Shown piece by piece: positions 3,780 through 56,553 of a stretch of 64,000 bases of DNA (within the stretch, counting starts at the first letter, position 1; every line of letters starts with the position of its first letter). The notes under the pieces were generated by a model. That model was not told the DNA's origin, did no database searches, and worked only from the letters and a program-made list of their open reading frames with translations. The position numbers were made by a program, and so were the translations under genes. Origin of the DNA: Parcubacteria group bacterium (GTDB lineage Bacteria > Patescibacteriota > Minisyncoccia > UBA6257 > Colwellbacteraceae); assembly GCA_041649615.1 (NCBI GenBank), contig JBAZMT010000004.1, positions 691-64,690 on the forward strand, read 5' to 3'.

Positions 3780-4017
3780 GCATTTTCAGGGCTACACCAT
3801 ACTCTTTAACAGTCTTCTTGACGGCCTCGTCAATCAATTTCTTTTCTTTATCAGAGAGTTCTTTTCGGCTTCCAATAATCTCGTTTTTTGGTATTGCAAA
3901 ATTCCGGCCGAATTTTTTGGCTTTAATTTCCCCGGATTTAATACGATTGAACACAGTTACTCTGCTGACGCCTAATTTTTTGGCTGCTTCAGCAGTTGTT
4001 AAGTATTCCTTTTCCAT
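3766..4017 (-). CDS. HTH DNA-binding antitoxin partner of Doc (excisionase/MerR-like HTH)
   Basis: 83 aa with LTTAEAAKKLGVSRVTVFNRIKSGEI helix-turn-helix. It sits immediately upstream of and overlaps doc. A 14 bp perfect palindrome lies in its promoter. Confidence 0.7.
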   Translation of the reverse strand: MEKEYLTTAEAAKKLGVSRVTVFNRIKSGEIKAKKFGRNFAIPKNEIIGSRKELSDKEKKLIDEAVKKTVKEYGVALKMLGQE

Positions 4018-4021
4018 AGCA

Positions 4022-4052
4022 ATATATTAACAGCTGTTAACCACTATTTCAA
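4022..4052 (-). promoter_or_regulatory. putative promoter (TTGAAA-17-TAATAT on minus strand) overlapping a 14 bp perfect palindrome TTAACAGCTGTTAA (4027-4040); likely autoregulated operator of the Doc toxin-antitoxin operon
   Basis: The reverse complement of 4018-4056 reads ttgaaa-tagtggttaacagctgt-taatat-attgct-ATG. The palindrome sits in the spacer and -10 region. The leader is only 6 nt, so the transcript would be leaderless-like. Confidence 0.5.
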
Positions 4053-4068
4053 TAGGTTAACAAGAGGA

Positions 4069-4800
4069 TTAGAACGCCGTAAACAATAGAATCACGAAAC
4101 TCGCGATCACCGCGAGGACGGCTATGAAAGGCGCGTTTGTTTGATAAAGTTTGCCGCGCAGGTATTCCACGATCATATAAAACGCGCCCGAGAAAGAAAT
4201 AAATACCGAAACGGTCGCCCAAATAACGGAGAGATTCAAATAAAATACCGCCCAGGCGAGTTCCGTAACGAGAAGAGAAGAAACAACGGCGAGAAGTCCC
4301 GTACGGCCAGTTTGCCAACCGTTCCGCCACTCGGTAGGTTCCGAGGCAGGCGTAAAAGAAGCGAGAGCGTCTCGGCAAAAGAAAAATACCACGAGAGCAA
4401 GAATGGGAAGATGGATGATTCCCGCGAAGAAACCGTAAAGCGAAGCGAAGATAATAACGCCGAGAAAGACGAAAAAGAACGGGGCGCGGCGGATGAAAAT
4501 CACGTTTTTGACGCCCAAGAGAAGCACAAACAGCGCGGCGACAATAACGGAAGCTATTACGCCCGGCCAACCGGAGAAAGGAGAAAAGTTCGCAATGAAA
4601 AACGAGCCGGCGGAAAGAAGAAAAGCGATAAAGCTCAGAACGAAGCTAAAAGAAAACGTGAGCGGCCAGAAATAAAGAAAAGCCGCCAAAATTCCCGCCG
4701 CCCAGACGGGCAGGAAATAAAGAGCGAGCGCCAAGGCAACGGCCTTAACTCCCAATCTTAATTTCGGAGTTTTCAATACCGATTTTAATTTTTCCGCCAT
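4069..4800 (-). CDS. polytopic integral membrane protein, unknown function
   Basis: 243 aa, almost entirely hydrophobic helices with about 7 TM segments. The start overlaps the clpB 3' end by 56 nt, so the true start may be a downstream alternative codon. Confidence 0.5.
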   Translation of the reverse strand: MAEKLKSVLKTPKLRLGVKAVALALALYFLPVWAAGILAAFLYFWPLTFSFSFVLSFIAFLLSAGSFFIANFSPFSGWPGVIASVIVAALFVLLLGVKNVIFIRRAPFFFVFLGVIIFASLYGFFAGIIHLPILALVVFFFCRDALASFTPASEPTEWRNGWQTGRTGLLAVVSSLLVTELAWAVFYLNLSVIWATVSVFISFSGAFYMIVEYLRGKLYQTNAPFIAVLAVIASFVILLFTAF

Positions 4801-10275: not shown

Positions 10276-10341
10276 GAAATTATGATACCAAACTCAAAAC
10301 GCAAAACTCAAAACGTAAAACTACAACTCAAAACTCAAAAT

Positions 10342-17908: not shown

Positions 17909-18091
17909 TTAGGTAATAATATGCTGAAAAATGGGATTTTTCAAGCTAACTCAAATGTCAAAGCTCAAAACTCAAAATTAAAACCTTTAACCTTTAATCT
18001 TTAGAGATTTGAGATAATTGGCTGTGGTTTCGACGTTTGAGTTTTGAGATTTGAGATAATGTTTTACGACATATCCATGATAAGATGAGAT

Positions 18092-18988
18092 TTGATGACC
18101 GCCATAGAGAAACTCCTAAAGGACTACTTTGATTACCTTCAGATAGAGAAAAACCGTTCGCCGAAGACGAAGGCGGTATATGAGAGGGCTTTAAGAAAGT
18201 TTGTGGAATTTGGAAAAATCCAAAATCCCAAAGACATTACGGACGAGCGCATCCGGAATTTCCGAGTGCATTTGGCCGAGAAGGGAGAACTTAAAAAGAA
18301 CACGCAAGGATATTATGCGATCGCCATCAGAAATTTTTTAAAATACCTGGTCAAACGCGACGTGCCGGCTTTAACACCTGAAAAAATAGAATTGCCGCAA
18401 ATGCAGAAGCGGCAGATAGAAGTAATTGAATACGGAGATTTGGAGAGGCTTCTTGAAACGCCAAAGGGAAATTCGGTGAAAGTTTTGCGCGATCGGGCGA
18501 TTTTGGAAACGCTTTTTTCGACGGGGCTTCGCGTTTCGGAACTTTGCGCTTTGGGAAGGTACATTAATACCGATCGCGGAGAAATATCGGTGAAAGGAAA
18601 AGGCGAAAAAATAAGGGTGGTCTTTTTATCGGAGAGAGCGAAAAAAGCGATAAAGGCGTATTTGGACAAACGCGATGACGCGGAAGAGGCGTTATTTATA
18701 ACGTTTACGCACGCGAAACAAGCAAAGCCGATCGGGAGAATGACGCCCCGAACGGTTGAACGGATCATAGATCACTACGCGCGCGAAGCGGGAATTCCGA
18801 AGAGTGTCCATCCGCATACTCTGCGGCATTTGTTTGCAACAGACTTGCTCATGAACGGGGCGGACTTGCGTTCGGTTCAAGAAATGCTGGGACACTCAAA
18901 CATTCAGACGACTCAAATTTACACGCACCTCACGAATAGAGAATTGAAAGACATTCACAAATCATTTCACGGAAGAAGAAGAGGATGA
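18092..18988 (+). CDS. tyrosine recombinase, XerC/XerD family
   Basis: 298 aa. N-terminal SAM-like core-binding domain and a catalytic domain with R...HPHTLRH...TQIYTHL (catalytic Tyr). Confidence 0.9.
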   Translation: MMTAIEKLLKDYFDYLQIEKNRSPKTKAVYERALRKFVEFGKIQNPKDITDERIRNFRVHLAEKGELKKNTQGYYAIAIRNFLKYLVKRDVPALTPEKIELPQMQKRQIEVIEYGDLERLLETPKGNSVKVLRDRAILETLFSTGLRVSELCALGRYINTDRGEISVKGKGEKIRVVFLSERAKKAIKAYLDKRDDAEEALFITFTHAKQAKPIGRMTPRTVERIIDHYAREAGIPKSVHPHTLRHLFATDLLMNGADLRSVQEMLGHSNIQTTQIYTHLTNRELKDIHKSFHGRRRG

Positions 18989-19549: not shown

Positions 19550-19630
19550 GCTCCCGTGGCGGAATGGCAGACGCGCATGGCTTAGGACCATGTTCCGAAA
19601 GGATTGGAGGTTCAAATCCTCCCGGGAGCA
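19550..19630 (+). tRNA. tRNA-Leu (anticodon TAG), type II with a long variable arm; CCA not encoded
   Basis: Acceptor stem GCTCCCG/CGGGAGC. Anticodon stem catgg/ccatg with loop cttagga. T-arm GGTTCAAATCC. Confidence 0.85.
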
Positions 19631-19671
19631 CAATTAGCCGCTTAAATGCTCGTAAAATCGGGCTTTTTACC

Positions 19672-20865: not shown

Positions 20866-21252
20866 TTATACCGTTAAAAGATTTCTAATAACGACTTCCA
20901 CCGCTTTGGATAAAACTATGGCGGCGACTCCGACCGAGGTCCAAAGAACGGTTTTTCTTGCTTGCTTCACCTTTTCGTCATTTCCTCCGGAGGTAAGGAA
21001 AAGAAATCCGGCCCATAAATACATAAGGGCGGCAACGGGGATGACGATCCAAAGCAGACCGTTAATGATTCCGTCAATAAGAGTGGCCGGATCGCCGGCG
21101 GGAAGATTCAAAGGGTTTACGATCGTAAACGAGGGCAATCCGCTTCCGGAGTCCGAGCCTTCCCCCGCTGCGAGCGCGATACCGTGTCTAGACACCTCCA
21201 GAAATATTTTTTGGAATATTGTTTGCATACTCATATATTTTAGAATAACCAC
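20866..21252 (-). CDS. VirB2/TrbC-like two-TM pilin-like protein (paralogue 2 of 3)
   Basis: 128 aa (the start may be internal at 21234). It has an N-terminal AAGEGS leader motif, then LLWIVIPVAALMYLWAGFLFLTSGGNDEKVKQARKTVLWTSVGVAAIVLS. Confidence 0.6.
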   Translation of the reverse strand: MVILKYMSMQTIFQKIFLEVSRHGIALAAGEGSDSGSGLPSFTIVNPLNLPAGDPATLIDGIINGLLWIVIPVAALMYLWAGFLFLTSGGNDEKVKQARKTVLWTSVGVAAIVLSKAVEVVIRNLLTV

Positions 21253-21668
21253 GGCATTAAGGAAGTCGCTTCGCTCGTTAGCCCCAGTGACCTAATGACT
21301 ATGCCGATGATAACTCCCGCGCCGAGGGCGATCGCGACACCGATAACGGCGGATTTAATAAATCCCTTCCCCATACCTACGCGTTTTTCATTGCCTCCGG
21401 ACGTAAAGAGAATAAAAGCTCCCACGACGATCATTAAACCGGCTATGGGCAAAACGACCGAATAAAGAAGACCGATAACGTTGCTTACGATTTGCAAGGC
21501 GTCGCACCAGCCGACGGTACTTGCGATATTCGTGGCGCTTTGAAAACGGGAAGGGGTAATGCCTTGTCTGATATCAAACGGCGAAATCGTACATCCGGTA
21601 GTGGCAGACGATCCCTCTCCGGCCGCGTGGATGATAAACGGGGCGATTATTTTTCCGATAATGTTCAT
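21240..21668 (-). CDS. VirB2/TrbC-like two-TM pilin-like protein (paralogue 3 of 3)
   Basis: 142 aa with HAAGEGS leader motif, then LLYSVVLPIAGLMIVVGAFILFTSGGNEKRVGMGKGFIKSAVIGVAIALGAGVIIGIV. Confidence 0.6.
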   Translation of the reverse strand: MNIIGKIIAPFIIHAAGEGSSATTGCTISPFDIRQGITPSRFQSATNIASTVGWCDALQIVSNVIGLLYSVVLPIAGLMIVVGAFILFTSGGNEKRVGMGKGFIKSAVIGVAIALGAGVIIGIVIRSLGLTSEATSLMPWLF

Positions 21669-29897: not shown

Positions 29898-29975
29898 GCG
29901 CCTGTAGCTCAGTCTGGTTAGAGCATGGAGCTTATACCTCCAGGGTCCTTGGTTCGAATCCAAGCAGGCGCACCA
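29898..29975 (+). tRNA. tRNA with anticodon TAT (tRNA-Ile reading AUA); CCA encoded
   Basis: Acceptor stem GCGCCTG/CAGGCGC. D-arm gctc-agtctggtta-gagc. Anticodon stem tggag/ctcca with loop c-t-TAT-a-c. T-arm cttgg-ttcgaat-ccaag. Ends in ACCA. Confidence 0.75.
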
Positions 29976-30081
29976 AAAAAATTCAAAACGCAAGACTCAA
30001 AACTCAAAACTAAAGTTACTCCCTTCGGAAGATTTTATAGTTTGAATTTGTTTTTTGTTCTGTTTATGATTCCCTCAATCA

Positions 30082-30861: not shown

Positions 30862-31463
30862 GTCGTTTTATTCAGTTTCCAGAGATTACCCTCAAAAATC
30901 ATTTCCACGTCCGCTTTTTTTCCGTCATCAAGCGTAATTTCAATATCGGCTTTTTTATCGGACTCGGATAATAATTCCACGTTTTTTATTTCGCCTCTCG
31001 GCATAGTAGCCATGATTATAGCCACCATACTTTCTTCGGTTATGAATCCTCCCGTTCCTTTAATAACATCTCTCATCTGATTATATTTCTGAATTGAACT
31101 ATCGCGATTTTCTTCGCTTTGATAGAGCTCGGTAAAGAGAATCAAGTCGTCTATGTTTTTTATTTTTAAAATTTCTCCTCTGATAATTCGGTAAGTTTCA
31201 ACCGGGCCAAGTCCCGATATATTGACGTCTTGAACAGAAATTATTTTTGGCGTTTCCTCCGGAATACTATTTTCTTCTTCGTTCATCCCGGAATTATTTT
31301 CCTCTGGGAGGTTTGTTTCGCTATTATTTTCGGCGGTTAATTTACTAAGGTTCGGGATCCGGTTTAAAAGCAGTGAAGCAACCATAAAAATAAGAGCCGC
31401 GCCCAATATTGCGAGGTGCCAGATTTTTATCGGCTTCTTTTCTTTTTTAACTATGTCATCCAT
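30849..31463 (-). CDS. hypothetical membrane-anchored protein
   Basis: 204 aa. One N-terminal TM (IWHLAILGAALIFMVASLLL), an Asn/Glu-rich linker and a C-terminal domain of unknown function. Confidence 0.55.
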   Translation of the reverse strand: MDDIVKKEKKPIKIWHLAILGAALIFMVASLLLNRIPNLSKLTAENNSETNLPEENNSGMNEEENSIPEETPKIISVQDVNISGLGPVETYRIIRGEILKIKNIDDLILFTELYQSEENRDSSIQKYNQMRDVIKGTGGFITEESMVAIIMATMPRGEIKNVELLSESDKKADIEITLDDGKKADVEMIFEGNLWKLNKTTWKQ

Positions 31464-31944
31464 TTGATCTGAATGTGCTTATTCCTTTTCCGAAAAGCTT
31501 TATGAAAACTTCTTCCTTGTCTTTCTCGGTCAATATGTTTATTCCTTCCTTCAATAACTCTTCTCTCAAATCATATTTTAATTTCAAAGACTTATTAAAT
31601 AAAGAGATTAGCGTTACTTCGTCGTCATCCGCGGCCAATCGGTTTATGGAAATTTTTCCGCAAACGACGCACTTATGAATGATCATTAACTCCCCTTTCC
31701 TCTCCCTTTTATATTTATCGCTCCCTTCGTGTTTGAAAGTCAGGCCGATAGGTTCCATCTGTCCTTTGCAGTTTGAAGCGCGATCACCGGAAAATTCTTC
31801 ATCAAGATGAAGCGAAAAAAGGCAATATGGACAGTGGTTCCGGTGTGCGGTGCCTATACTCCCGGAAAAGGGAATTTGCTTGCCGCAATTAACACAGATA
31901 AATCCCTCTTCCTTATCTTCTTCTTTTATTTCATGTCCGGGCAT
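31456..31944 (-). CDS. RNHCP-domain zinc-binding protein
   Basis: 162 aa. CVNCG...RNHCPYC and a second CVVCG Cys cluster are typical of the RNHCP domain family. Confidence 0.6.
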   Translation of the reverse strand: MPGHEIKEEDKEEGFICVNCGKQIPFSGSIGTAHRNHCPYCLFSLHLDEEFSGDRASNCKGQMEPIGLTFKHEGSDKYKRERKGELMIIHKCVVCGKISINRLAADDDEVTLISLFNKSLKLKYDLREELLKEGINILTEKDKEEVFIKLFGKGISTFRSNG

Positions 31945-31979
31945 ATTAATAAGAGAAATTTAATATGTCCGGGTGTTTT

Positions 31980-32372
31980 TGGCTAGTATTAAAGATAAAA
32001 GGATGTGGCCACATATGTGGACAACTATGGGTATAACCCGGCCAAATTGTGGATAAATGGCCGGGTCAAAATGGCCGGGTTTATGTTTTTAAAATGACAC
32101 CCAAATAAGTGTTTTCACACTGTTTTCACATTAAAAACTGTTTTCACATTTGTTTTCACATCCTAGAGGCCGAATTTGTTTCAAAATGTTTGCCGACAAA
32201 CACTTTGTACAAAAGTGATTGGTGTTTTCACATTTGTTTTCACATTCTGGATGTCAGATTTGTTTTAAAATGTTTGCCGGCAAACATTTTGTGCAAAAAA
32301 ACGTGTTGCGAGTGTTTGCCGGTAAACATTTTATGCAAGATTTTTTGTTTAGAGTGTTTGTCGGCAAACACT
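31980..32372. repeat. complex repeat-rich divergent intergenic region with DnaA-box-like 9-mers, an 84 bp direct repeat carrying TGTTTTCACA doublets, and four phased copies of the 16 bp palindrome TGTTTGCCGGCAAACA
   Basis: DnaA-box-like 9-mers tgtggacaa (32017) and tgtggataa (32048). Palindrome ccacatatgtgg at 32009-32020. Two copies of aatggccgggt. Palindrome copies start at 32187, 32271, 32313 and 32355 (spacings 84, 42 and 42 bp). The motif ctgttttcacatttgttttcacat occurs at 32138 and 32222 (84 bp apart). Confidence 0.8.
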
Positions 32373-32396
32373 CTAAAACAGATTTATAATAAAAAA

Positions 32397-32786
32397 GTGA
32401 GAGAGATTCCTTCTTTTAATGGTCAACGTGGCCAAATTGGGACATATGGAGAACAATTGGCGGCCAAATATTTAAGGGAAAACGGATATAAAATAGTCCG
32501 AACAAATGTGTCTTTTCCTTATGGTGAAATAGATATTATTGCGAGAGATCGTGACAAGACTCTAGTTTTCGTTGAGGTTAAGGCCATGGCCAGATATGGT
32601 CATATTGGGGGATTGCGGCCAGAAGATAATTTGACCCGGGCAAAGTTAGTGAAATTAAAAAAATCTTCTCAATTCTTCGCCAATCAAAATCAAGCTCTTT
32701 CAAAGAATGGTTGGCGAATAGATTTAATTGCCTTGACAATATTAGAAAAAAGTTGTGACATTAGACACTTGAAAAATATTGGTTAA
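32397..32786 (+). CDS. yraN: YraN/UPF0102 family endonuclease-like protein (start uncertain, possibly GTG at 32397)
   Basis: The ORF-track ORF 32109..32786 has an N-terminal 96 codons that translate the repeat array (Cys/His/Phe-rich nonsense). The C-terminal 125 aa match YraN (GEQLAAKYLRENGYKIVRTNVSFPYGEIDIIARDRDKTLVFVEVKAM). Confidence 0.65.
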   Translation: MREIPSFNGQRGQIGTYGEQLAAKYLRENGYKIVRTNVSFPYGEIDIIARDRDKTLVFVEVKAMARYGHIGGLRPEDNLTRAKLVKLKKSSQFFANQNQALSKNGWRIDLIALTILEKSCDIRHLKNIG

Positions 32787-43864: not shown

Positions 43865-44974
43865 CTAATCTTTAATAGGCATCACGATATAGATATAGGA
43901 ATTATCTTGAGGCCATTTGATGATTGACGGTTTAACGTCTCCCTGAAAACCCATATTTACCGTTTCGGAACTTATATTCTTCAGTCCGTCAAGCATAAAG
44001 CGCCAATTAAAAGACACGTTTAGCGGTTCACCTGTGATTTTGGCGGGAATCAAGTATTTATTTTCTCCAAGAAGACTGTCGGCGGAGTATACTTCGGTCA
44101 GTTTTTGATCGGATATTATTCTTAAAACCACTTCGTTATTTTTGGGACTAAACGAACTGACTAGTTTCAGAGCTCCAGTCAGTTCCGATCGGCTCACTTC
44201 AATATTTGTGCTCACGTTTTTAGGAATAATAGGAGCGTATTCCGGGAATTTACCGTCTATAATCCTTGTAATAAGCGTAATGTCCTCGTTTTTAACCATC
44301 AGCTGATTTTCATCGGAATAAATTTTAATCGTTTCTTTGTCGTTTATCACTCTAACCATTTCTTGAGCCGGTTTAAGAGGGATTATCATCTTAAACCCTC
44401 TTTCAAAATTATTGGTGAAGTCGGAACCATAGAGCGTTTTTTCAGCCAATCGGAAACTGTCCGTGGCTACAAATTTAATGGTTTCACCGTCAATATCCCA
44501 CATTATTCCGCTTATCTCCGGTCTTAATTCCGAAATTTGAGCCGCGCTCATAACGGAAAGAAGACTTTCTTTTAAAATATCTCCTTTTATTTCAATAAAT
44601 TCGTCTTTTACGCCAACTTTCGGAATTATCGGAAATTCCTCGTAATTCATTCCTTGTATTTTGGCTTCGTAACTATCCGTTTTAATAAGGATATTTATGT
44701 CCTTGTTTTCAATATCAATCCGCTCGCTTTGAATGTTATTTATAACATTGTTAAAAACGGTAAAAGGAATTGTTATTTGGCCTTCTTCGGTTATTTTACC
44801 GGCCACGGTTTTAATTATGGCCGTTTCCAGGTCGGTTGAAATTATATTTATTTTTCCATTTTCGGTTTTAATAAGGATGTTTTTAAGAATGGGCAGAGTA
44901 GTATTCTCTCCCACTATTCTTGAAACGGCGTCTAAGGAATTTTTCAGATTGTTTTTTAATACAGTTATCTTCAT
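43865..44974 (-). CDS. dnaN: DNA polymerase III beta sliding clamp
   Basis: 369 aa with a three-domain clamp pattern. It is immediately downstream of dnaA. Confidence 0.93.
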   Translation of the reverse strand: MKITVLKNNLKNSLDAVSRIVGENTTLPILKNILIKTENGKINIISTDLETAIIKTVAGKITEEGQITIPFTVFNNVINNIQSERIDIENKDINILIKTDSYEAKIQGMNYEEFPIIPKVGVKDEFIEIKGDILKESLLSVMSAAQISELRPEISGIMWDIDGETIKFVATDSFRLAEKTLYGSDFTNNFERGFKMIIPLKPAQEMVRVINDKETIKIYSDENQLMVKNEDITLITRIIDGKFPEYAPIIPKNVSTNIEVSRSELTGALKLVSSFSPKNNEVVLRIISDQKLTEVYSADSLLGENKYLIPAKITGEPLNVSFNWRFMLDGLKNISSETVNMGFQGDVKPSIIKWPQDNSYIYIVMPIKD

Positions 44975-45176
44975 TGAATTAATTAATAAATAAATATAAT
45001 TTGTTGTAATAGTAGTATCTGTAAGAAAGTGGAAAAGTTAATTTTTACATTACGCAATCTATTTAATGGTTGATGGGAATTAATTTTAAGATGTGATTAA
45101 TTTTGTGGAAATGTAACGGAATTTAGCAGGGGAAGCATTAGGCGCGTAATTTATACAGAATTAATTCACATGGTTT

Positions 45177-46523
45177 TCAGGATTTATTAACCAATTCTTT
45201 TATCATAATCAGTTTTTGATTAAAGGCAGGATTTTCGTTTAAAGAGTGGGTTATTTTATCAAAAGCGTATATGGCCGTGGTGTGATCTCTTTTACCCATT
45301 TTCTCGGCAATAAACGGGTAGGACATATTTAACATCTCGCGAAGAAGATACATGGCCACTTGTCTCGGTTCAACGATTTCTTTTTTACGGCCGCGGCCAA
45401 TTAAGTCGGTCGTGGAAATTTCATAGAACTCGGCCACGGCCTTAATAATCTGGGAGTGGGTGATATTCACGGCCGATTGTTCCAATATCTCATTCATTAT
45501 TTTTTCGGCGATCATCAGATCAAAAGAACTGCCGTGATTTTTATGGAAAACGAGCTTATTAATTATCCCTTCAAGTTCTCTTATATTTCGCTGAACTTTA
45601 TCGGCCACGAAATTAACCACTTCATCGTCTAAATGTTCTTTTTTATCCTGAAGTTTAACTTTTATTATCGCCACTCTCGTTTCAAAATCGGGAAAACCGA
45701 TATCAACCGTCATTCCGCCTTCAAAACGGGACTTTAATCGTTCTTCAAGAATAGGTATCGCGCGCGGAGGACGATCGGAAGAAATGATTATCTGTTTGTT
45801 GTTTTCATGAAGAGCGTTAAAAGTGTGGAAGAACTCTTCTTCCGTCTTTTCTTTGCCGCCGATAAACTGAATGTCATCAATGATAAGGACGTCAATGTTC
45901 CGATAAGTGTTTTTAATGTCTTCAACTCTCTTGTTTCTGATAGCCCAAATGACATCATTGGTGAATTTTTCGGAGGAAACGTACTTAACTTTGAATTTTC
46001 CTTTATATTTTTTGTGTATTTCGTTGCCTATAGCCTGGATAAAATGGGTTTTTCCGAGTCCCGTACCGCCATATATGAATAAAGGATTATATTTATTACC
46101 GATTTCCTCAATTATTGACGTTCCGGCCGCATAAGCGAGCTCGTTTGAGGAACCCACGACGAAAGTTTTGAGGTTATATTTTGGGTTTAACCCGGACTCT
46201 GGATCGGCTTTGAATTCATTGAAGGCAAGCTGCTTCGTTTCTTCGGCGGGTCTTACGGATTCGCTCTTCTTTAAGACGGCGCCATCCACAATGTAAGTTA
46301 TTTTTCTAATGGAACTGTCTTCAGTTCTCAAAATACCGAGGATTACTTTCCCGTATTTGGCTTCAACCCATTCTTTGGCGAAGTGATTCGGTAACGCCAC
46401 GATCGCATCGCCATCTTTATTGTTGACGAGTCGGCTGTTCTTAAGCCAGGTCAGAAAATTAGGTCTTGATATCTGTAATTCCAGCTCGCCTAATGATCTA
46501 TCCCAAAGCTCATCAACGTTCAT
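45177..46523 (-). CDS. dnaA: chromosomal replication initiator protein DnaA
   Basis: 448 aa. Domain I, an AAA+ module (GGTGLGKTHF, Walker B LIIDDIQF) and a C-terminal DnaA-box-binding HTH (HTTAIYA). Confidence 0.96.
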   Translation of the reverse strand: MNVDELWDRSLGELELQISRPNFLTWLKNSRLVNNKDGDAIVALPNHFAKEWVEAKYGKVILGILRTEDSSIRKITYIVDGAVLKKSESVRPAEETKQLAFNEFKADPESGLNPKYNLKTFVVGSSNELAYAAGTSIIEEIGNKYNPLFIYGGTGLGKTHFIQAIGNEIHKKYKGKFKVKYVSSEKFTNDVIWAIRNKRVEDIKNTYRNIDVLIIDDIQFIGGKEKTEEEFFHTFNALHENNKQIIISSDRPPRAIPILEERLKSRFEGGMTVDIGFPDFETRVAIIKVKLQDKKEHLDDEVVNFVADKVQRNIRELEGIINKLVFHKNHGSSFDLMIAEKIMNEILEQSAVNITHSQIIKAVAEFYEISTTDLIGRGRKKEIVEPRQVAMYLLREMLNMSYPFIAEKMGKRDHTTAIYAFDKITHSLNENPAFNQKLIMIKELVNKS

Positions 46524-46687
46524 AGATGTAATTTTATTTAAGCGTTACCGAAGCGTCAAAATACCGGAATGCGCCATTGAAAAAATTTTAAATTTGTAAT
46601 CAAGACGTTTATAAACAAAGTTTGTCCGGAAACGGAGCAAAGAGAGGATTATCTGATAAAAACCGGATTGGCTGAAATTCCAGCCAC

Positions 46688-46708
46688 TGTGGATAACTTG
46701 TGGATTAA
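46688..46708. promoter_or_regulatory. two adjacent DnaA boxes: TGTGGATAA (perfect, 46688-46696) and TGTGGATTA (46700-46708) in the dnaA-rpmH intergenic region; candidate oriC / dnaA autoregulation site
   Basis: Matches the TTATCCACA consensus (reverse complement) at 9/9 and 8/9 positions. Confidence 0.65.
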
Positions 46709-46789
46709 GGGTAATTTCTGTTGACAAAAAGACTCAAATGTACCGAAAAATCATTGACTAAACCTTGAAAATTACTTATTTTAAGCCTC

Positions 46790-46924
46790 ATGAAACCGAC
46801 TTATAACCCTAAAAAGAAGAAAAGAGCGAGAACGCACGGTTTTCTAAAGAGGCAGTCAACTAGGGGAGGGAAAAGAACGATCGCGAGAAGAAGAGCTAAA
46901 GGCAGAAAAAGACTCTCCGTCTAG
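46790..46924 (+). CDS. rpmH: 50S ribosomal protein L34
   Basis: 44 aa, [44 protein letters not shown]. This ORF is not in the supplied track (shorter than 60 aa). It matches the L34 consensus. Confidence 0.9.
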
Positions 46925-49428: not shown

Positions 49429-50568
49429 TTACTTGTTGTTAATACACCAGGTCATTCTTCGGTACTTCATAAAGTGACCTATTTCCGAAGACCTGACGCC
49501 TCTTCCCGCCGGGTCATTGATATACACTCTGTTCTTACTCTCGTCTATACCTTTGACTACAATGTAATGTCCTCCCAATGTAAAAATCGGAGTGCGATCA
49601 CGGGGGGTATTTTTCAACAGTTCCACTTCTTCGGCGGTTGGCGCTTTCATAAGAGCGATTACAATTCCGCCGTTTCTTAAACAGCTAGCAAGACTTCTCT
49701 GGGTGTTTGATATACCGGCGGATTTAAGTCCGTATAGCTTAGGTATGCCGATCATAGCGGCCCAAGCGGTTCCGTGATTGCAGGGTCTCCATTTATTCGC
49801 GACAATCGCATTACCCACGGTTTCTACGGCTGTTGTAGGAGTCATATACCTGTTACCGGTGAAATAGAGCATTACCATGGCGAGAGACGTCGCTCCACAA
49901 CCAGAGCTACCATAAGTTCCCGAGCAATTCGCACCGTATTTTTTACCTCCCCACGGACTGCTACCTTGCTTCAAAAGAGGAACTTCGGAATATGCGGGAG
50001 CTCCCGTGACTAAAGGCGCGCCTCCACCCCCCAAACCTGCGGAAGATAACACTTGCCACTTTGAGGTATCAGTGGGGAGAACACCAGTATTTGCTTCAAG
50101 AGCTATGTAAGAAACATTTTTATAAGCGACTTCGTCTCCTGGTAGATATGCGGTGGAAGAAGAGTATGTTCCTCTCCAACGAGCACCGGAAGGAAAAGCG
50201 GTCGGCGGAATATACCCAACGACTGGTTGAACGTTTGTCTCGGGAACGGCAAGCTCTACGAATTCCAAGTCAACGTCTTCAATAGTCGTGGCTTTTGGGT
50301 TAACTACCGAAACTATTATGAATCCGAAAGCGATAACGGCGAGTCCTTTTGCGGCCGCCCAAATCCACGCGCGAGCTTCTTTTTGCCGAGATTCATTATC
50401 TCCGGCGGTGGAATACAAAATTCCCGCAAATATTATGGTGCCCAATGCCAAAATGGCACCTATACCCAAACCGATAAAGAAAATATTGGCAATGCCGCCC
50501 GGTAAAATATCGTTAATAACGGAAACAAGACCGGGATCTTCAGCCAATGCAACCTGAATAAAACTCAT
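49429..50568 (-). CDS. fusion protein: N-terminal VirB2/TrbC-like two-TM pilin module + C-terminal Peptidase_C39-like (YvpB/BtrH-type) cysteine peptidase domain
   Basis: 379 aa. N-terminal module as in the 48465 gene. The C-terminal domain has the catalytic Cys context SSGCGATSLAMVMLYF and His context GGHYIVVKG. Confidence 0.7.
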   Translation of the reverse strand: MSFIQVALAEDPGLVSVINDILPGGIANIFFIGLGIGAILALGTIIFAGILYSTAGDNESRQKEARAWIWAAAKGLAVIAFGFIIVSVVNPKATTIEDVDLEFVELAVPETNVQPVVGYIPPTAFPSGARWRGTYSSSTAYLPGDEVAYKNVSYIALEANTGVLPTDTSKWQVLSSAGLGGGGAPLVTGAPAYSEVPLLKQGSSPWGGKKYGANCSGTYGSSGCGATSLAMVMLYFTGNRYMTPTTAVETVGNAIVANKWRPCNHGTAWAAMIGIPKLYGLKSAGISNTQRSLASCLRNGGIVIALMKAPTAEEVELLKNTPRDRTPIFTLGGHYIVVKGIDESKNRVYINDPAGRGVRSSEIGHFMKYRRMTWCINNK

Positions 50569-50576
50569 GTACTGAA

Positions 50577-52949
50577 TTATAACACTCCTCCCGAATTTTC
50601 TTCAGTCCCAGAATCCGCTTCGGCAATAATTCTCTGCGATAAAAGTTCTTCCGGGTTTGTGGTTATGATCTGATTTTCAAAAGCGGACGGAACGATCTGG
50701 ATGGCAATGTGTTTCTGTCCGACAAGGATGAGTCCTTGTCCTATATCTACGTCCACAAGATAATTCTTTTCAACTTCGGTTAAGCTAAACGCTCGCGCCA
50801 CAACGTCAATCGTGGCCGGAGATTGCTTGAGCAGAAGCTGGAGCGAAGAGTTCGTAATAACGGGACGGCCGTAAGGAGAACTCAAGAAGTCTTCCACGTC
50901 TTGGGTAATGGTCGTAATGCCAAGATAATATTTTCTGGCTCTTCTTACGAGGTTAAACAAGAAAGAGGCCGAGTCGGGATATTTCATCAAGAGCCAGGCT
51001 TCGTCTACGACCATGATTCGGCGTTTGAGTTTTGAACGGACGATATTCCAGACGTGGTTCAAGACGATATACATGGCAATTGGTCTCAACTCTTCTTCCA
51101 AATCGCGGATGGAAAAAACAATGACTCTGCTTCGGATATTTATATTCGTGGGGCGGTTGGTAAAACCGGCATAGCTGCCCTTGGTAAAGCGGTAAAGTCT
51201 TTCCGCCAACTCTTTTCCTCCTTCCATGTTTCGGAGAATGTTTTCCAAATCTTCCAATAAAGGGGGGGTCGCTTTGCCAAAATCTCTTCCTGGAGAAATA
51301 TCGTGAGAGGCATACGTTTCGTTTATGGCGCGGTCTAGGATCCCTTCTTCGGCGGGCGTAACGATTCCCACCATAAGTTTTACGAGGCCGGTAAGGCTCG
51401 CGATGTGGGATTGAAGCACCTCGGATTCGTTTTCGCCTTCGGGAACGATGGGAATTTCAAAGGGATTAATACTATCTTTAGACGTGAGAGATATCTTAAA
51501 CGTTGTTCCGCCAACCGCGTCGGCGAGCGACTGATATTCGTTCTCCGGATCAAGAATGAGAACGTCCGTTCCAAGCATGATCGATCTCAACAATTCCAGT
51601 TTTGCCGCATAAGATTTACCGGAACCGGATTTGGCGAAGATAACGGAATTGTTATTTTCAAGATCAAAGCGGTCAAATATAACAAGCGTATTGTTGTGAA
51701 GATTTAATCCGTACATTATTCCTTCATCGGTCGTTAGATCGGGCGAAATGAAAGGAAAGAAAGCCGAAGCGGGACTGGAATTCATGGCGGAAGAAATATC
51801 CATTATGTTTCGGCCGAGAGGACAAACCGAACGCCAAAGCCTGACTTGCTCAAACATAGGGGTTTTCACCGTAACGAGCGATCGCTCCAAAGTAGAGGTA
51901 ATTCTGTATTCAAGTTTCTTTAATTCTTCCAGAGAATCGGTGTAAATTGAACAATAAAAACTCACGGAGAAAAGTTTTTCTCTGGTTTGCTGGAGAGTAT
52001 CGCGAAGATTTTCCGCGTCTGCAAGAGCGGTTTCAAGAGCGGGATCTCTTATTAATCCTTTTTCTTGCCGTTCTATCATAGAGGCGGAAATGGAGGCGAC
52101 TTTTCTCGTAAGGTTTTTAAGGGCGATGCTCGTGTCGACGGGGGAAATGTGAATGGATATATCCATTAATTCCGGAAGATTGATAATCGGTTCGAGCCAA
52201 CCGGAAGAAAGATAACGCGGGTAATTCAAAACAAATAAACTTTTGACGAATTTGTCGTTGATCTTCAGATAATCGGGTTTTATCTCAATAAGTTTGGAGG
52301 AAACCGGATCCCCTTCGGGGATGGGTTCTTTTTCCGTGGTTTTTGGGTTGTAAAAATTGGCGCAGAGTTCTCTCAGTTCCGCATCATTCAGGGTCACGGC
52401 GCGGAGCCCGATGTGGCGCAATCCTTGAAGAACTTGTTCCGTCCGGAAATTGAGTTTTTCCATATGCTGCATAAGCTCTTCAACGGACATATTGGCAATT
52501 CTTTCCTCTTCTTCCCGGTGTTTTTTGCCGATGCCCGGCAGGACGGTCGGTTCAAAAGGGACGGTAACGAAAAAGCTCTTTTCAACGACGGCGTTTTCGG
52601 AAATAAAATTTTCAATGAATTTGACGTATTCGGAGAGCTGATTTTTGATAAGAGGATTTTCCTCCGTTTCCATCCGACTCTTTATGTTCTCTATGTATTC
52701 TTTGATAGCCAGGCGGCGCGAGTGAACGCTTAACTGAATGGCAAAATCAAGGGAATTAAGGAGATTCTGGAAAGCGGTAATTATGGAGTTCTGTTCTTCC
52801 TCGGATTTTAAATCCATATTAATTCCGGCGACCATAATCACTTTTCTCATGCCTCCCCTTTTAAGAAAGACGGCATCGTTTCTGATTTCCCTTACGTCCG
52901 ACAAGCTTTCGGTTGAACCAAAGGAAGTTTTAGATGGAGATTTTGGCAT
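50577..52949 (-). CDS. VirB4/TrbE/CagE-family type IV secretion ATPase
   Basis: 790 aa. N-terminal VirB4-like domain (SEEE...ITAFQNLLNSL). Walker A FAKSGSGKSYAAK, Walker B RIMVVDEAWLL. Confidence 0.85.
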   Translation of the reverse strand: MPKSPSKTSFGSTESLSDVREIRNDAVFLKRGGMRKVIMVAGINMDLKSEEEQNSIITAFQNLLNSLDFAIQLSVHSRRLAIKEYIENIKSRMETEENPLIKNQLSEYVKFIENFISENAVVEKSFFVTVPFEPTVLPGIGKKHREEEERIANMSVEELMQHMEKLNFRTEQVLQGLRHIGLRAVTLNDAELRELCANFYNPKTTEKEPIPEGDPVSSKLIEIKPDYLKINDKFVKSLFVLNYPRYLSSGWLEPIINLPELMDISIHISPVDTSIALKNLTRKVASISASMIERQEKGLIRDPALETALADAENLRDTLQQTREKLFSVSFYCSIYTDSLEELKKLEYRITSTLERSLVTVKTPMFEQVRLWRSVCPLGRNIMDISSAMNSSPASAFFPFISPDLTTDEGIMYGLNLHNNTLVIFDRFDLENNNSVIFAKSGSGKSYAAKLELLRSIMLGTDVLILDPENEYQSLADAVGGTTFKISLTSKDSINPFEIPIVPEGENESEVLQSHIASLTGLVKLMVGIVTPAEEGILDRAINETYASHDISPGRDFGKATPPLLEDLENILRNMEGGKELAERLYRFTKGSYAGFTNRPTNINIRSRVIVFSIRDLEEELRPIAMYIVLNHVWNIVRSKLKRRIMVVDEAWLLMKYPDSASFLFNLVRRARKYYLGITTITQDVEDFLSSPYGRPVITNSSLQLLLKQSPATIDVVARAFSLTEVEKNYLVDVDIGQGLILVGQKHIAIQIVPSAFENQIITTNPEELLSQRIIAEADSGTEENSGGVL

Positions 52950-52957
52950 AATATGTG

Positions 52958-53644
52958 TTATCTGTAATCAACCCTTCTTGCAGCTATCGTTTCACCGGTC
53001 GGCTTTTCTATGAGTTCATATCCTTTTGGTAATCTGGCAGAAGTCTGCTGCAAAGTCTCTTCCCTAAAAGGAATGGGCAAGGAAGTGGTAGTCATCTTAT
53101 TGAATAAGTTCTGGAGCCGAGACTTCTTTTTTTCCGGAGCCAACTCGCCGATTGGCGGGGGAGCGGGTTCAACCAAGGGGCTTACAAATACAGCGGGAGA
53201 AGGAGGTTCCATTATAGGAGGAGAGACGGGCTCAACCGGGATCATAACCGGAGGAATTTCGGTTGGGGCTTCCGGCGAGACGGGCGGCATAGCGGGAAAA
53301 CTTCCAGCTGATGGGATAGTAGCGATAGGTACTTCAGGGGAAATTGTTTCTCGAACTCTTTCTCCAATAACTTTCAATTTTAGGGCGAGAGTCTTGGGCT
53401 CCCAGAGATAACTGAAAGCTGCCGATATAAAGATAGGCATGGGGCGGCCGTTAACTTTGACGAGAGCAATAATAAGAGAACTTCCGACAAGGATGGCGGA
53501 GACGATAAGCCAAAACCAGGTTGTGAGAACGGTGAATAAAAGGAAAGATATGACAATGGCCGCTCCGACATATACAAACTGAATAAGAGTAAAAGGACCG
53601 ACAAGCTTACTCTCCGTTTCAAACTGCGGAACCTGAAACTGCAT
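52958..53644 (-). CDS. VirB3/PrgI-like small membrane protein with a Pro-rich C-terminal tail
   Basis: 228 aa. Two-TM hairpin (LIQFVYVGAAIVISFLLFTV..FWLIVSAILVGSSLIIALV). It sits directly upstream of the VirB4 homologue, as in Gram-positive T4SS loci. Confidence 0.55.
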   Translation of the reverse strand: MQFQVPQFETESKLVGPFTLIQFVYVGAAIVISFLLFTVLTTWFWLIVSAILVGSSLIIALVKVNGRPMPIFISAAFSYLWEPKTLALKLKVIGERVRETISPEVPIATIPSAGSFPAMPPVSPEAPTEIPPVMIPVEPVSPPIMEPPSPAVFVSPLVEPAPPPIGELAPEKKKSRLQNLFNKMTTTSLPIPFREETLQQTSARLPKGYELIEKPTGETIAARRVDYR

Positions 53645-53674
53645 ATATTTGATTTTAAGTAAGCCGAGAGTGGC

Positions 53675-54370
53675 TTACAAGGGCAAGTCTTTTAAATTTA
53701 GAACGTTTTCGGGGTTAACTTTTTTCGCTTTTTCTTCCGGATTAAATTCAAGACTGGCAAATGACGTCTTTTGTTGCGTTTCCGGGCTTCCTGAATAAAA
53801 CATCGGTCGCAAGGGAATTTCTCCTTGAACATTGCTTGCGGATACTTGTTCGGGAAGTTTCTCTTCGTGAATGACAAAAGGAGTGGGAGTGGCGGGTTCA
53901 CCGAGATTAGGGACAACGGGATTCATTTCGATAGGAACAGCGGGTGAAGCTTGCGCCTCCGCTAAGGCTCCTGGTGAAGTAATATTTTCAGGCACTTCTT
54001 CAGAAGAAACGGTCAAAGCAGGGTTGAAAGGAGCAATATTCTCGTCTATTGGAGCGATAACTGAAATATCAATACCGGATTCGGCGAGAGGCGCTCTTAT
54101 TGGAGTAAGGGTGGCGTTCACAAGTCTACCGACAACGGCTTCGTTTTGTTTATCCTGCGGGAGAGAAGAAAGTAATTTATTTCTGAATTCTTCGGACGGG
54201 ATATTTTTGAGAATCAGGTCAAAAATAGTATTGATTAAGGGAGCAGAGCTTTGAATATTAAATTCCTCCTGAACGGATACGATTGAGTCAATAAAACCGT
54301 CCGAATCCATCCATTGCTGAATTGTAGGATTTAATTCTTTAAAATTCATTTTTTCATGAATGTTTACCAA
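53675..54370 (-). CDS. hypothetical soluble protein within the T4SS-like cluster
   Basis: 231 aa. No TM or signal peptide. Acidic with a Pro-rich C-terminal half. Confidence 0.5.
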   Translation of the reverse strand: MVNIHEKMNFKELNPTIQQWMDSDGFIDSIVSVQEEFNIQSSAPLINTIFDLILKNIPSEEFRNKLLSSLPQDKQNEAVVGRLVNATLTPIRAPLAESGIDISVIAPIDENIAPFNPALTVSSEEVPENITSPGALAEAQASPAVPIEMNPVVPNLGEPATPTPFVIHEEKLPEQVSASNVQGEIPLRPMFYSGSPETQQKTSFASLEFNPEEKAKKVNPENVLNLKDLPL

Positions 54371-56553
54371 TCACCTTTGCCTATGTGGTAATTGACTTTA
54401 GCGTCAACACGACGATACTCACGTGTTTCATCAGCCGTTAAATGTGTTCCACCAACACCAAGTGTTCTAAGGCTAAGAGCGGCAAGTGCATTATTAATAT
54501 CTGTTTTTTCAGTGGCTGATCCTTCTTCTTTTATTTTATTGATGTCAGTGACCGAGAGAAGAAGAGCACTATCGGTCTTAGGCGTTACTCCGGAAAGATC
54601 ATCTAAAATTCTCTCTCTAACTTTATCTGCGTGTGTATGAAGTAGTTTGTTAACTTTTGTTAAGTCAGAAGCGTTAAGGGCAGACGTACCACTTAAATGA
54701 TCTAGTTTTACTTGTTTCATTGCATCTAAAACATTATTAACCACTGCCTCCGTACCATTCTCCATTATTTTAGCAACATTCTTTAGTCCGAGTTTCATTA
54801 CCATTGCCGGATCTTTAGCTATTTCGGCTCCGATATGCTGTGCATATACCTTAAATGTTTCGGAGTCCATATTTTCTGCATCTTTGTCAGAGATACCAAG
54901 AACACCAGAGGATTCTCCAAGAAGGGTGCTTGATAAGACCGTTCCTTTAACGACTCCTTTTCTAATTTCTTCGTCAGTTTTGGTTTTAATTGTCGGTTTA
55001 ACACCTACCTGGCTTAACAATGATCTAGCTCCTTTGCCTACTCCGCTTTCTGCGGGATTAAACCTAAGTCCTCTTGAAAGTCCGCTAAAAGCCGCAGCTG
55101 CGCCTTTATTTCCTTTTGCTGCAGCTGTCTTAGAAGCCATTTCGGCCATCATTTGACCTCTTTTGGCTAGGTTCTGGGCTTTACCGACTAAGAATCCGAC
55201 TCCGCCGGAAACTCCGGCCATTACCAGATTTCCGGCAACACCGCTGAATTTAGCCGTGAGAAATAACCCCATGGCGCTTATGATGATGGTAGCAATAAGC
55301 TGACCGATTGTGACAAGCCAACCGGCTTGAGTGGTGGAAACTGCGCCGGCAGAGCTAAGGTATTGTGAAGTAAAGGCAAGGAACAGAACTATAACGGGGC
55401 CAAAAAACACCCACTTGAGGAATTCTTTCCACCATCTCTCCCAGGCTAATTTCTTTAGAGGAGGAAATACGAATCCGAGCCAAATGAGAGGTGAAAAGGT
55501 GAGGAGGAGCATAAGAATAACGAATCTGATGATAAGGAAAATAGCCATAGCAAAGAAAGTAAGGGCGGCAACTACACTAATGGCAATACTTGCGTAATAG
55601 AAAAGAACGTTAGAGAGCAAGAAATTAATAAGATTGATAAAAGGCTGAATAAACAAGAGAGCTACTGCTAAAAGAGGACTTGCGATGTTTCTGGCTGCTT
55701 CTGCAGCGGTTCCACCACCAGGTATTCCGGTAATCTGGTTCGAAGCACCACCTATCTGATTCTGTATTTCACCACTGTCAACAATAGTGTTTATATCCGG
55801 GGATGAACCACTAATCACATTGCTTTGCATGAATATATTGTGTAAATGCCAGACGGTAAAATAGGTACTCATAGCGCCTGGGCAGGGAGCGGAAGCGTTA
55901 AACATTCTTTCGGTTAATGTTGTTCCTAGGCCCACAATTCCACTTGTGGCAGGAATGGTTAAATTCACCAAAGCAACGGCAACTACAAGTTTAAGAAGGA
56001 GCTTATTAACGGAAAACTCTTCTCGGCGAAGAATGGTAGCGATACCTATAACGATAATAGCCAATATGAGTCCAAGGTTTGTAATCTGAAGGATAACTTT
56101 ACCTCCATAGGTTACTAAAGGATTATTAACATTGAGGGAAAAATTTAGCGCTAGAGCCGCATTAATTAGTCCTCCGGCTAAAAGATTGAAGGCGGAAGCG
56201 ACAAGCGCTCCAATCATCGTGGTTAAGAGAAAATTTCTTATAGCTTCTATGGCTTGATCAATGGGCTCAAATATTCCACCCGGAGCGAGACTTATGCCAA
56301 AAGTAGCGGCCTCAATGCCAAATTCAAAATTCTCAAGAAAGCTTACGATAAAATCAAGACCGATAATTCCACCAAGAACAGCACTATTTGCCTGCCAAAT
56401 AGGCGATTGAAAGAAATTTATAGCGTCTGAAAATTGGGTAGTAAATATATTAGCGCATTCAGTGTTTATTGCCGGATCATCCGCTTTAGCGGTCGGCACA
56501 ATAGCCCAAATAAACATCAGGAGCAAAACAACGCTTACAACTTTGCGGAACAT
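54364..56553 (-). CDS. VirB6/TrbL-like polytopic type IV secretion membrane protein
   Basis: 729 aa. Signal peptide (…VPTAKA), at least 8 TM helices in the central region and a hydrophilic C-terminal domain of about 250 aa. Confidence 0.6.
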   Translation of the reverse strand: MFRKVVSVVLLLMFIWAIVPTAKADDPAINTECANIFTTQFSDAINFFQSPIWQANSAVLGGIIGLDFIVSFLENFEFGIEAATFGISLAPGGIFEPIDQAIEAIRNFLLTTMIGALVASAFNLLAGGLINAALALNFSLNVNNPLVTYGGKVILQITNLGLILAIIVIGIATILRREEFSVNKLLLKLVVAVALVNLTIPATSGIVGLGTTLTERMFNASAPCPGAMSTYFTVWHLHNIFMQSNVISGSSPDINTIVDSGEIQNQIGGASNQITGIPGGGTAAEAARNIASPLLAVALLFIQPFINLINFLLSNVLFYYASIAISVVAALTFFAMAIFLIIRFVILMLLLTFSPLIWLGFVFPPLKKLAWERWWKEFLKWVFFGPVIVLFLAFTSQYLSSAGAVSTTQAGWLVTIGQLIATIIISAMGLFLTAKFSGVAGNLVMAGVSGGVGFLVGKAQNLAKRGQMMAEMASKTAAAKGNKGAAAAFSGLSRGLRFNPAESGVGKGARSLLSQVGVKPTIKTKTDEEIRKGVVKGTVLSSTLLGESSGVLGISDKDAENMDSETFKVYAQHIGAEIAKDPAMVMKLGLKNVAKIMENGTEAVVNNVLDAMKQVKLDHLSGTSALNASDLTKVNKLLHTHADKVRERILDDLSGVTPKTDSALLLSVTDINKIKEEGSATEKTDINNALAALSLRTLGVGGTHLTADETREYRRVDAKVNYHIGKGDW

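Follow-up and report, generated by a model that had tools for sequence, protein, structure and literature searches.

What is the dense block of palindromes and repeats that separates an RNHCP-domain gene from yraN, and which protein might read it? The block fills positions 31945-32396, between the minus-strand RNHCP gene and the plus-strand yraN gene (UPF0102), of a 64,000-nucleotide stretch of DNA from a Parcubacteria group bacterium (contig JBAZMT010000004.1), which we refer to as the window. An initial annotation had proposed that the palindromes are helically phased sites for a dimeric regulator, or else an iteron-like element. The repeats that it listed are all present where it placed them, including the 12-bp palindrome, the DnaA box at 32048 and the copies of AAATGGCCGGGT. 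It overlooked, however, that the 16-bp palindromes are akin to parS, the chromosomal loading site of the partition protein ParB, and that yraN, rather than the RNHCP gene, is the conserved partner of the array. The finding is thus real and more interesting than had been proposed, for a different reason. Judging from the comparison of sites across relatives, we consider it fairly probable that positions 32187-32370 form a tandem array of four parS-family sites, in the lineage variant TGTTTGCCGGCAAACA, that is read by ParB. With about the same confidence, we take this array to be the local copy of a Patescibacteria module, in which 2-13 such sites lie directly 5' of yraN.

The four palindromes, each with no or one mismatch to TGTTTGCCGGCAAACA, are the following:

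32187-32202, no strand: parS-like palindrome 1, TGTTTGCCGACAAACA, part of the 84-bp repeat unit
32271-32286, no strand: parS-like palindrome 2, perfect copy of TGTTTGCCGGCAAACA
32313-32328, no strand: parS-like palindrome 3, TGTTTGCCGGTAAACA, within the 42-bp tandem unit
32355-32370, no strand: parS-like palindrome 4, TGTTTGTCGGCAAACA, promoter-proximal, overlapping the -35 element of the yraN promoter match

Further matches to TGTTTGCCGGCAAACA do not occur in the 64 kb at up to three mismatches (chance expectation 0.28), and the looser pattern TGTTTN6AAACA is found four times, always at the array sites, against 0.10 expected. The palindromes, the TGTTTTCACA repeats described below and the DnaA boxes are all restricted to 32009-32370. 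The palindromes are therefore unique to this locus within the window, rather than scattered at a similar density, and the array forms a single locus in the window and in each related contig, rather than a degraded mobile-element end present in many copies. Tandem Repeats Finder delineated an 84-bp unit repeated 1.9 times at 32139-32298 and a 42-bp unit repeated 2.4 times at 32271-32370. The DNA between the sites is thus itself repeated and not unique, and the window holds no other copies as a dispersed family of repetitive extragenic palindromes (REP), miniature inverted-repeat transposable elements (MITEs) or CRISPR repeats would.

Compared with the consensus parS site TGTTTCACGTGAAACA, TGTTTGCCGGCAAACA has identical outer TGTTT/AAACA arms and an identical central CG, and differs at two inner bases per half-site; the local sites match the parS consensus TGTTNCACGTGAAACA at 12 of 16 positions. 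The general form of the site family is TGTTT-NN-CG-NN-AAACA. The closest genome (L003/L055, with an RNHCP protein 68% identical) retains the entire layout. Colwellbacteria (L005-7, L040, L094) carry 11 sites with a 41-43 bp period directly 5' of yraN, built from the half-sites TGTTTGCC, TGTTTACC, TGTTTGTC and the canonical parS half TGTTTCAC, which are often mixed within one site. Scanning the 18-mer WTGTTTGCCGGCAAACAW of palindrome 2 over 185,579 genomes, one per GTDB species, returned 86 loci. Outside the Candidate Phyla Radiation (CPR) the matches were single sites in roughly the number expected by chance, except for one multi-site locus in a Microbacteriaceae genome (L093), where one GCC copy and three spread canonical parS sites lie near dnaA. 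Within CPR, 18 loci proved to be clusters of 2-13 TGTTTN6AAACA sites, including ones from Saccharibacteria, Harrison-, Wolfe-, Lipton- and Colwellbacteria, Parcubacteria and other metagenome-assembled genomes (MAGs). Several CPR arrays mix perfect canonical parS, the GCC variant and hybrids such as TGTTTGCCGTGAAACA, and the perfect canonical 16-mers number up to seven in one array (L117) and five in another (L182). The presence of the variant, canonical TGTTTCACGTGAAACA and hybrids within the same arrays of relatives argues that they belong to one site family.

How the sites vary suggests how they are read. Leaving the centre free in the TGTTTN6AAACA pattern, we tallied 130 sites at 23 loci, of which 92% have CG at the centre. 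The inner triplets of their half-sites are GCC (104), CAC (72), AAC (19), GTC (17) and others, and asymmetric hybrids account for 58 of the 130 sites, or 61 of the 139 in the set used for a symmetry test. Even at phylum-level distance the arms are invariant and show no compensatory changes, and the inner bases vary. This combination suggests a dimeric protein that reads the sequence and speaks against hairpin conservation, in keeping with the earlier suggestion that the palindromes resemble sites for a dimeric DNA-binding protein. Relative to random pairing of half-sites, symmetric sites were in mild excess (78 versus 66.6 expected, p ~0.006).

The spacings of 84, 42 and 42 bp reported for the window are correct, but the rule of four helical turns that had been drawn from them is not conserved. 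The 42-bp period of the window recurs in Colwellbacteria, whereas L036, L051 and L182 have one of about 49 bp, L009 and L021 one of 59 bp, and L043, L058 and L108 one of about 74 bp. Lineage-specific periods rule out conserved helical phasing and leave placement on one DNA face unsupported as a selected feature. The periodicity instead reflects unit duplication, of which the 42/84-bp period of the window would be the trace. In one Harrisonbacteria MAG the array is found at two contig ends (L021:6593-6785 and L083:21-95) with identical 59-bp units; arrays of this kind seem to break short-read assemblies and may be undercounted in MAGs.

ParB-family proteins that could read such sites are encoded in CPR. 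The genome of Southlakia epibionticum, a Saccharibacterium, has annotated ParA and ParB genes (SEML1_0183/0184), both of which transposon sequencing scored as essential (PMC10633639 supplement), and the Patescibacteria contig L183 encodes ParA and ParB 7 kb from yraN (ParB at L183:2113-3090). Used as a query, the L183 ParB retrieved thousands of relatives, the named top matches being Paceibacterota, Wolfebacteria and Patescibacteria, and KorB was among the PDB relatives of CPR ParB. In an alignment with Spo0J, all 120 listed close CPR ParBs (from the related proteins P0241-P0508) have Arg at the equivalent of Caulobacter R173, and all 120 have Ser, in the motif NESQAR, where ParBs have G201 (xGHAR). 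HMMER alignment to Noc and to the ParB structures solved for Thermus, Myxococcus and Bacillus confirmed the register. Position 201 is Ser, together with R173, in 77 and Gly in 65 of the best 150 representatives at 50% identity, with Ser prevailing in the nearer half of the ranking; the Noc-type QKKR residue signature was not found. According to Jalal et al. (2020; PMC7383237), ParB shows absolute conservation of G201. Base 1, which is G in parS and A in the Noc-binding site (NBS), is read there by residue 173, and base 6, which is A in parS and C in NBS, by residue 201, with the small polar residues S, T and C at 201 occurring in parS-binding as well as NBS-binding variants. G1 is retained in the CPR sites, and the variation falls on bases 5-6 (CA or GC). 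The retained G1 would fit R173 and the variation at bases 5-6 would fit S201, a specific protein-DNA match that we infer from the two sets of sequences. Near the arrays, tblastn with Spo0J and Soj queries matched only an actinobacterial locus, and parAB was not found within 10 kb. Conversely, parS-like sites are lacking within 10 kb of the parAB genes of three CPR loci, and the arrays at yraN are thus the only parS clusters in the CPR DNA examined.

The second component of the module is the gene that the array faces. The elements concerned in the window are:

31456-31944, minus strand: RNHCP-domain gene, divergent neighbour (Pfam)
32361-32390, plus strand: putative yraN promoter, TCGGCA, 18-nt spacer, TATAAT, agreeing with 10 of 12 consensus positions (a consensus match only)
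32397-32786, plus strand: yraN (UPF0102, PD-(D/E)xK endonuclease), conserved partner of the array (Pfam PF02021; NCBIfam YraN family)

In a tblastn search with the window proteins, 16 of the 18 CPR cluster loci showed a yraN homolog directly beside the array, which invariably lies 5' of the gene. The gene on the far side varies and can encode ComEC, ComM, orotidine monophosphate decarboxylase, UppS, MetK, a nucleotidyltransferase or a VTT-domain protein. As a check that is unbiased by the motif, we anchored the search on the gene itself, aligning 15 CPR YraN proteins and thereby collecting 80 yraN loci from JGI metagenomes. Roughly 26 of these are at least 43% identical to the window YraN; about 11 of them have two or more parS-like sites within 900 bp upstream, including L117 with its seven perfect canonical sites and L105 with ten sites, and about 8 further ones have one upstream site. 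The roughly 54 more distant yraN loci include none with an array, and sites within or downstream of yraN, or elsewhere in the flanks of the anchored loci, are rare singletons. Between the end of the proximal site and the yraN start there are 0-35 nt in most lineages; in L182, 9-10 sites with the period of about 49 bp end 9 nt before the ATG. In the window, the sole sigma-70-like promoter match has its -35 element overlapped by palindrome 4, and its -10 motif AATTTATAATA (TATAAT) is conserved in L003 and L005. The true start of yraN is GVG at 32397, giving a protein of 129 aa, and this start agrees with both the gene call in ENA and the alignment of the family. The 225-aa open reading frame running over the repeats from 32109, rightly dismissed as an artefact before, is an in-frame upstream extension of yraN. 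The RNHCP gene could be ruled out as the functional partner: in Colwellbacteria two genes intervene between RNHCP and yraN, and the synteny breaks while the array stays with yraN. Upstream of the Colwellbacteria RNHCP gene (L005:9830-10000) there are still two parS-like sites (TGTTTCACGGTAAACA) and a TGTTTACACA doublet.

YraN has recently been reported as a PD-(D/E)xK nuclease with nicking activity on supercoiled DNA in vitro and cutting activity on single-stranded DNA; together with the ComM helicase it resolves the D-loop of natural transformation, with relaxed specificity for the cleavage site (10.1101/2024.02.06.579203). Because of this relaxed specificity in vitro, YraN itself is unlikely to be a sequence-specific reader of the dyads. 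ComM (57985-59526 in the window) is encoded 25 kb from yraN, and elsewhere it is found within a few kb of the yraN array (L065:4134-5690, L182:5410-6963, L183:11374-12915), in L065 directly on the far side.

In the mechanism that we favour, the ParB of this lineage would be a CTP-dependent clamp with Ser at the specificity residue 201, the dimers of which would nucleate on the array sites, and the array, about 13 kb from dnaA, would serve as the region near the origin at which ParB loads, or as a centromere. As the last site overlaps the promoter or 5' end of yraN, the ParB complex would probably also repress or time YraN expression and thereby gate yraN, whose nuclease resolves the D-loops of transformation. 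ParB binding, the centromere role and the repression of yraN are what we infer from the sites and their position. More speculatively, the ParB-parS complex may be coupled physically and functionally to the transformation machinery in many Patescibacteria, a possibility that we regard as tentative. In that case, a parS array read by the G201S ParB clade would sit on the yraN promoter or start, and clamp loading would gate the D-loop nuclease; alternatively, YraN would act at the centromere. Full-text literature searches turned up neither parS arrays in CPR nor this motif, nor a link between parS and yraN, and such a link is apparently undescribed. If true, such coupling would tie segregation or the state of the cell cycle to how organisms reliant on DNA uptake recombine imported DNA, and the tight yraN link suggests that the segregation machinery controls this recombination. 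The site and mode of chromosome segregation in CPR/Patescibacteria are essentially unstudied, and a parS-family array beside yraN is a cis element recognizable from sequence alone, which, across thousands of uncultured genomes, could reveal where ParB loads. Moreover, the CPR ParB clade naturally carries Ser at a Gly reported to be invariant, a residue that sets parS-versus-NBS specificity according to deep mutational scanning. Mixed A6/C6 half-sites together with S201 would thus offer a natural test of the model for the evolution of ParB/Noc specificity.

The position of the array relative to the replication origin bears on this proposal. The dnaN-dnaA genes lie at 43865-46523 on the minus strand, 11.5-14 kb (about 13 kb) from the array. 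The initial annotation had asked whether the array, rather than the dnaA-rpmH spacer, is the skew minimum; cumulative GC skew climbs across the entire window and has no minimum at 32 kb. We further fitted the skew at third codon positions (GC3 skew) per gene on gene strand and a break point. The best break falls at 45-47 kb, at dnaA, with a shift of +0.08 and a 10.8% smaller residual sum of squares, as compared to only a 2.8% reduction for a break at 32 kb, the signal being weak overall in the window. An origin at the array locus is thus unsupported by skew, weak as this signal is; the skew favours the usual origin at dnaA, with the array about 13 kb off, close to the origin as is typical of parS. 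The L043 array lies about 5.7 kb from dnaA. The dnaA-rpmH spacer (46524-46790) contains two tandem DnaA boxes at 46688-46707, and the dnaA-dnaN spacer (44975-45176) is 74% AT; the origin probably lies at the dnaA spacers. The AT-richest 30-mer of the repeat region reaches 83% AT and coincides with the -10 region, whereas the dnaA-dnaN spacer reaches 93%.

Comparison with known systems indicates that the element would work most like chromosomal parS read by ParB (Spo0J). Shared features are the 16-bp dyad with identical outer arms and central CG, the canonical copies intermixed in the arrays of relatives, the location near the origin and the presence of ParB-family proteins in CPR. Differences concern the inner bases 5-6 (CA in parS, GC in the window sites), the tight tandem arrangement at the 5' end of yraN, as opposed to the scattered and often intragenic parS sites of well-studied bacteria, and the Ser of the CPR ParB clade in place of the G201 of other ParBs. 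The Noc-NBS system of Bacillota (TATTTCCCGGGAAATA) is related in that a ParB paralog reads a parS derivative with C at base 6, as in the CPR variant. It differs in that base 1 of NBS is A and read by Q173, whereas CPR sites keep G1 and CPR ParB keeps R173, and in that Noc sites are dispersed round the chromosome and serve nucleoid occlusion.

In architecture, by analogy, the array appears most like the sopC/SopB centromere of the F plasmid, in which a 43-bp repeat carrying a 16-bp inverted repeat occurs 12 times in tandem. Nearly the same layout is seen in the window, with units of about 42 bp that hold one 16-bp dyad each (the 42-bp and 84-bp tandem units given above), and in L005, with 11 units of 41-43 bp. 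Unlike sopC, the window array is chromosomal, does not lie beside a parAB operon, has another sequence and shows no plasmid similarity. KorB-OB of RK2 illustrates a ParB-family protein acting as a transcriptional regulator, and in Streptococcus pneumoniae ParB-parS is reportedly found next to comCDE. In these cases, a ParB-type complex likewise sits at a dyad overlapping or adjoining a promoter, comCDE being competence genes and yraN a transformation gene; they offer no described counterpart to the multi-copy array or to its phylum-wide conservation.

The left half of the repeat region, upstream of the palindromes and partly interleaved with them, contains the following elements:

32016-32024, minus strand: DnaA box TTGTCCACA, overlapping the palindrome CCACATATGTGG (32009-32020)
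32035-32080, no strand: GC-rich motif AAATGGCCGGGT in two copies (32055, 32069) and one inverted copy (32035-32049), flanking the perfect DnaA box
32048-32056, minus strand: perfect DnaA box TTATCCACA
32110-32160, plus strand: four TGTTTTCACA 10-mers in two doublets with 11-12 bp period (starts 32110, 32121, 32139, 32151)
32223-32244, plus strand: third TGTTTTCACA doublet, the duplicated portion of the 84-bp unit (starts 32223, 32235)

The repeated doublet noticed before thus amounts to three TGTTTTCACA doublets, or six exact copies, every one on the plus strand within 32110-32244 and with zero others in the window. The GC-rich motif is in part conserved in L003. The pair of DnaA boxes had been recognized correctly and is conserved, with its intervening sequence, in the Parcubacteria/Colwellbacteria clade (L003, L005/L040, L046, L061, L094), staying with the yraN-side array in Colwellbacteria. 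Arrays of Saccharibacteria, Harrisonbacteria and Wolfebacteria have no DnaA boxes nearby, and the same applies to most other CPR arrays. Altogether, the region holds two canonical and seven relaxed DnaA-type boxes, so that 9 of the 12 relaxed matches of the 64 kb fall within 32016-32298. The 10-mer differs by lineage, being TGTTTTCACA in the window, TGTTTACACA in Colwellbacteria and TGTTTCCACA or TGTTTACACA in L037, and its variable base (T, A or C) occupies the N position of the DnaA-box consensus TTATNCACA. The 10-mers fit either a relaxed DnaA box, KTTTNCACA, or half a parS site plus an extra base. At the distal edge of the array, Saccharibacteria and other lineages have TGTTTCACA, an exact half-parS followed by A, often as pairs 19 bp apart. 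The left half, 32009-32244, may thus be a clade-specific accessory part that is read by DnaA, for titration or regulation, or by ParB as half-sites. Pairs of TGTTTCACA were seen in distant CPR lineages at L009:3366-3410, L051:6056-6083, L065:4039-4066 and L182:9440-9560, in the same place as the TGTTTTCACA doublets of the window. L037:1180-1860 is an array of 124-bp units, each composed of GTTTACACA, TGTTTTTGTGGAAACA (which holds a DnaA-like box, GTTTCCACA) and TGTGTAGACGGCAAACA, and the TGTGTAGACGGCAAACA motif is also present upstream of yraN in L183.

Several observations weigh against the proposal that ParB reads the array. Motif regular expressions, Pfam and NCBIfam detected neither parA nor parB in the 64-kb window, the adjoining 10 kb on the right are likewise devoid of both, and the cognate ParB of this genome is putative only. 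The local site departs from consensus parS at 4 of 16 positions, and the slight excess of symmetric sites would also be predicted by a hairpin model, so that it does not tell the two models apart. In L184, TGTTTGCC/GGCAAACA and TGTTTATC/GATAAACA half-sites are separated by 7-bp spacers upstream of yraN (3890-4240), flanked by two TAATTCGGCAA repeat blocks, and a LAGLIDADG gene and a tRNA adjoin yraN; a rigid ParB dimer should refuse such a spacer, which fits a hairpin better. L096, L099 and L101 are CPR-like yraN loci that have no array. Finally, a pure centromere role fails to explain the strict adjacency and orientation of the array to yraN. The latter point is the strength of the main alternative, which remains a dedicated yraN operator: a dimeric repressor other than ParB would shut off yraN, and the likeness to parS would be convergent. 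Apart from the conserved 5' placement in many lineages, the proximal site on the promoter and the failure to find ParB in 74 kb of genome examined speak for such an operator, and LacI-type operators, too, combine a central CG with arms rich in AT. We nevertheless judge it unlikely, as it does not account for the perfect canonical parS 16-mers within the same arrays (L117, L182), and a simple operator would not typically come in 4-13 tandem copies. The neighbourhood has no conserved regulator gene, and the cognate helix-turn-helix regulator that the initial annotation suggested looking for is not encoded close to the array. Sites are also missing upstream of other competence genes of the window, such as comM and pilB, and the change at ParB residue 201 matches the varying base.

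A role centred on DnaA, with the locus serving as oriC or as a DnaA-titrating site formed by the DnaA boxes and the KTTTNCACA repeats, and with the palindromes as accessories, appears improbable. The concentration of relaxed boxes, the conserved box pair, the 11-12 bp period of the doublets, typical of DnaA arrays, and the variable 10-mer base falling on the N of TTATNCACA are all in its favour. Similar clusters of canonical and degenerate DnaA boxes exist outside oriC as datA/DARS of E. coli and the DnaA-box clusters (DBCs) of B. subtilis, which are likewise intergenic and near, but not at, dnaA; the window differs in having only two canonical boxes, its other repeats being ambiguous. This part of the region is absent from most CPR arrays, including those of Saccharibacteria, Harrisonbacteria and Wolfebacteria, where the flanking repeat TGTTTCACA is an exact half-parS. 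In addition, the GC skew lacks a minimum here, with the best GC3-skew break at dnaA, and no AT-rich unwinding element stands out. Still less probable is a structure-forming element, in which the dyads would extrude as DNA cruciforms or fold into hairpins in the leader RNA of yraN and perhaps serve the YraN nickase as substrate or sensor. Consistent with this idea, YraN nicks supercoiled DNA in vitro, the last dyad of some lineages abuts the start codon and so must lie in or at the 5' end of the transcript, L184 has the same arms around its 7-nt spacer, and symmetric sites are slightly enriched. Fixed arms without compensatory changes and asymmetric inner bases (the 61 hybrids among 139 sites) are instead the signature of sequence readout, and YraN has relaxed site specificity. 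Nor did the region match a bacterial Rfam family: a known RNA family was rejected because no match reached the gathering level, the only ones being sub-threshold matches to eukaryotic miRNA hairpins, caused by the dyads. Hardly credible, finally, is a mobile-element remnant such as a MITE, an insertion sequence end, a CRISPR-like array or a plasmid iteron array. Tandem and inverted repeats are common at mobile-element ends, and an integrase gene lies 13 kb away; yet the locus is single in the window and in each related contig, its syntenic position is conserved across genera, and no rep or transposase gene is adjacent. Viral contigs (IMG/VR) gave six singletons and the plasmid and phage collections no similarity. 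A mobile-element origin was thus ruled out by the lack of dispersed copies and of plasmid or phage similarity, and the iteron-like element considered initially fares no better, as the window has no rep-like gene and its main repeats are dyads, not direct iterons.

The surroundings of the ParB-site array proposed here are those of a chromosome. The window is near-identical to part of a 157-kb metagenome contig (ENA ERZ27247363 k141_1795992); among the overlaps checked, L001 is identical and L174 differs at 2 of 11,570 bases. Homologs of the window RNHCP protein carry the labels Parcubacteria, Paceibacterota and Colwellbacteria. Downstream of yraN follow rpsT, holA, fpg and a histidine kinase gene, and rpmH-rnpA-yidC-jag begin near 46.8 kb, so that the array is set among chromosomal housekeeping genes. 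A tyrosine integrase gene (18092-18988) adjoins tRNA-Leu (19550-19631) and is followed by small genes for type IV secretion system (T4SS) pilins (20866-21668); the segment 18092-21668 may be an integrated element. A T4SS-like cluster at 49429-56553 includes a C39-like peptidase with a pilin domain, a large unannotated protein, a TraC-like ATPase (50577-52949) and a PrgI-family protein (52958-53644). Runs of the heptamers AAACTCA/AAAACTC, in 3-7 copies, occupy the intergenic positions 10290-10340, 17948-18057 and 29978-30011. One of them directly follows a tRNA-Ile gene (29898-29975, ARAGORN) with the anticodon TAT (UAU), an uncommon bacterial route to reading AUA.

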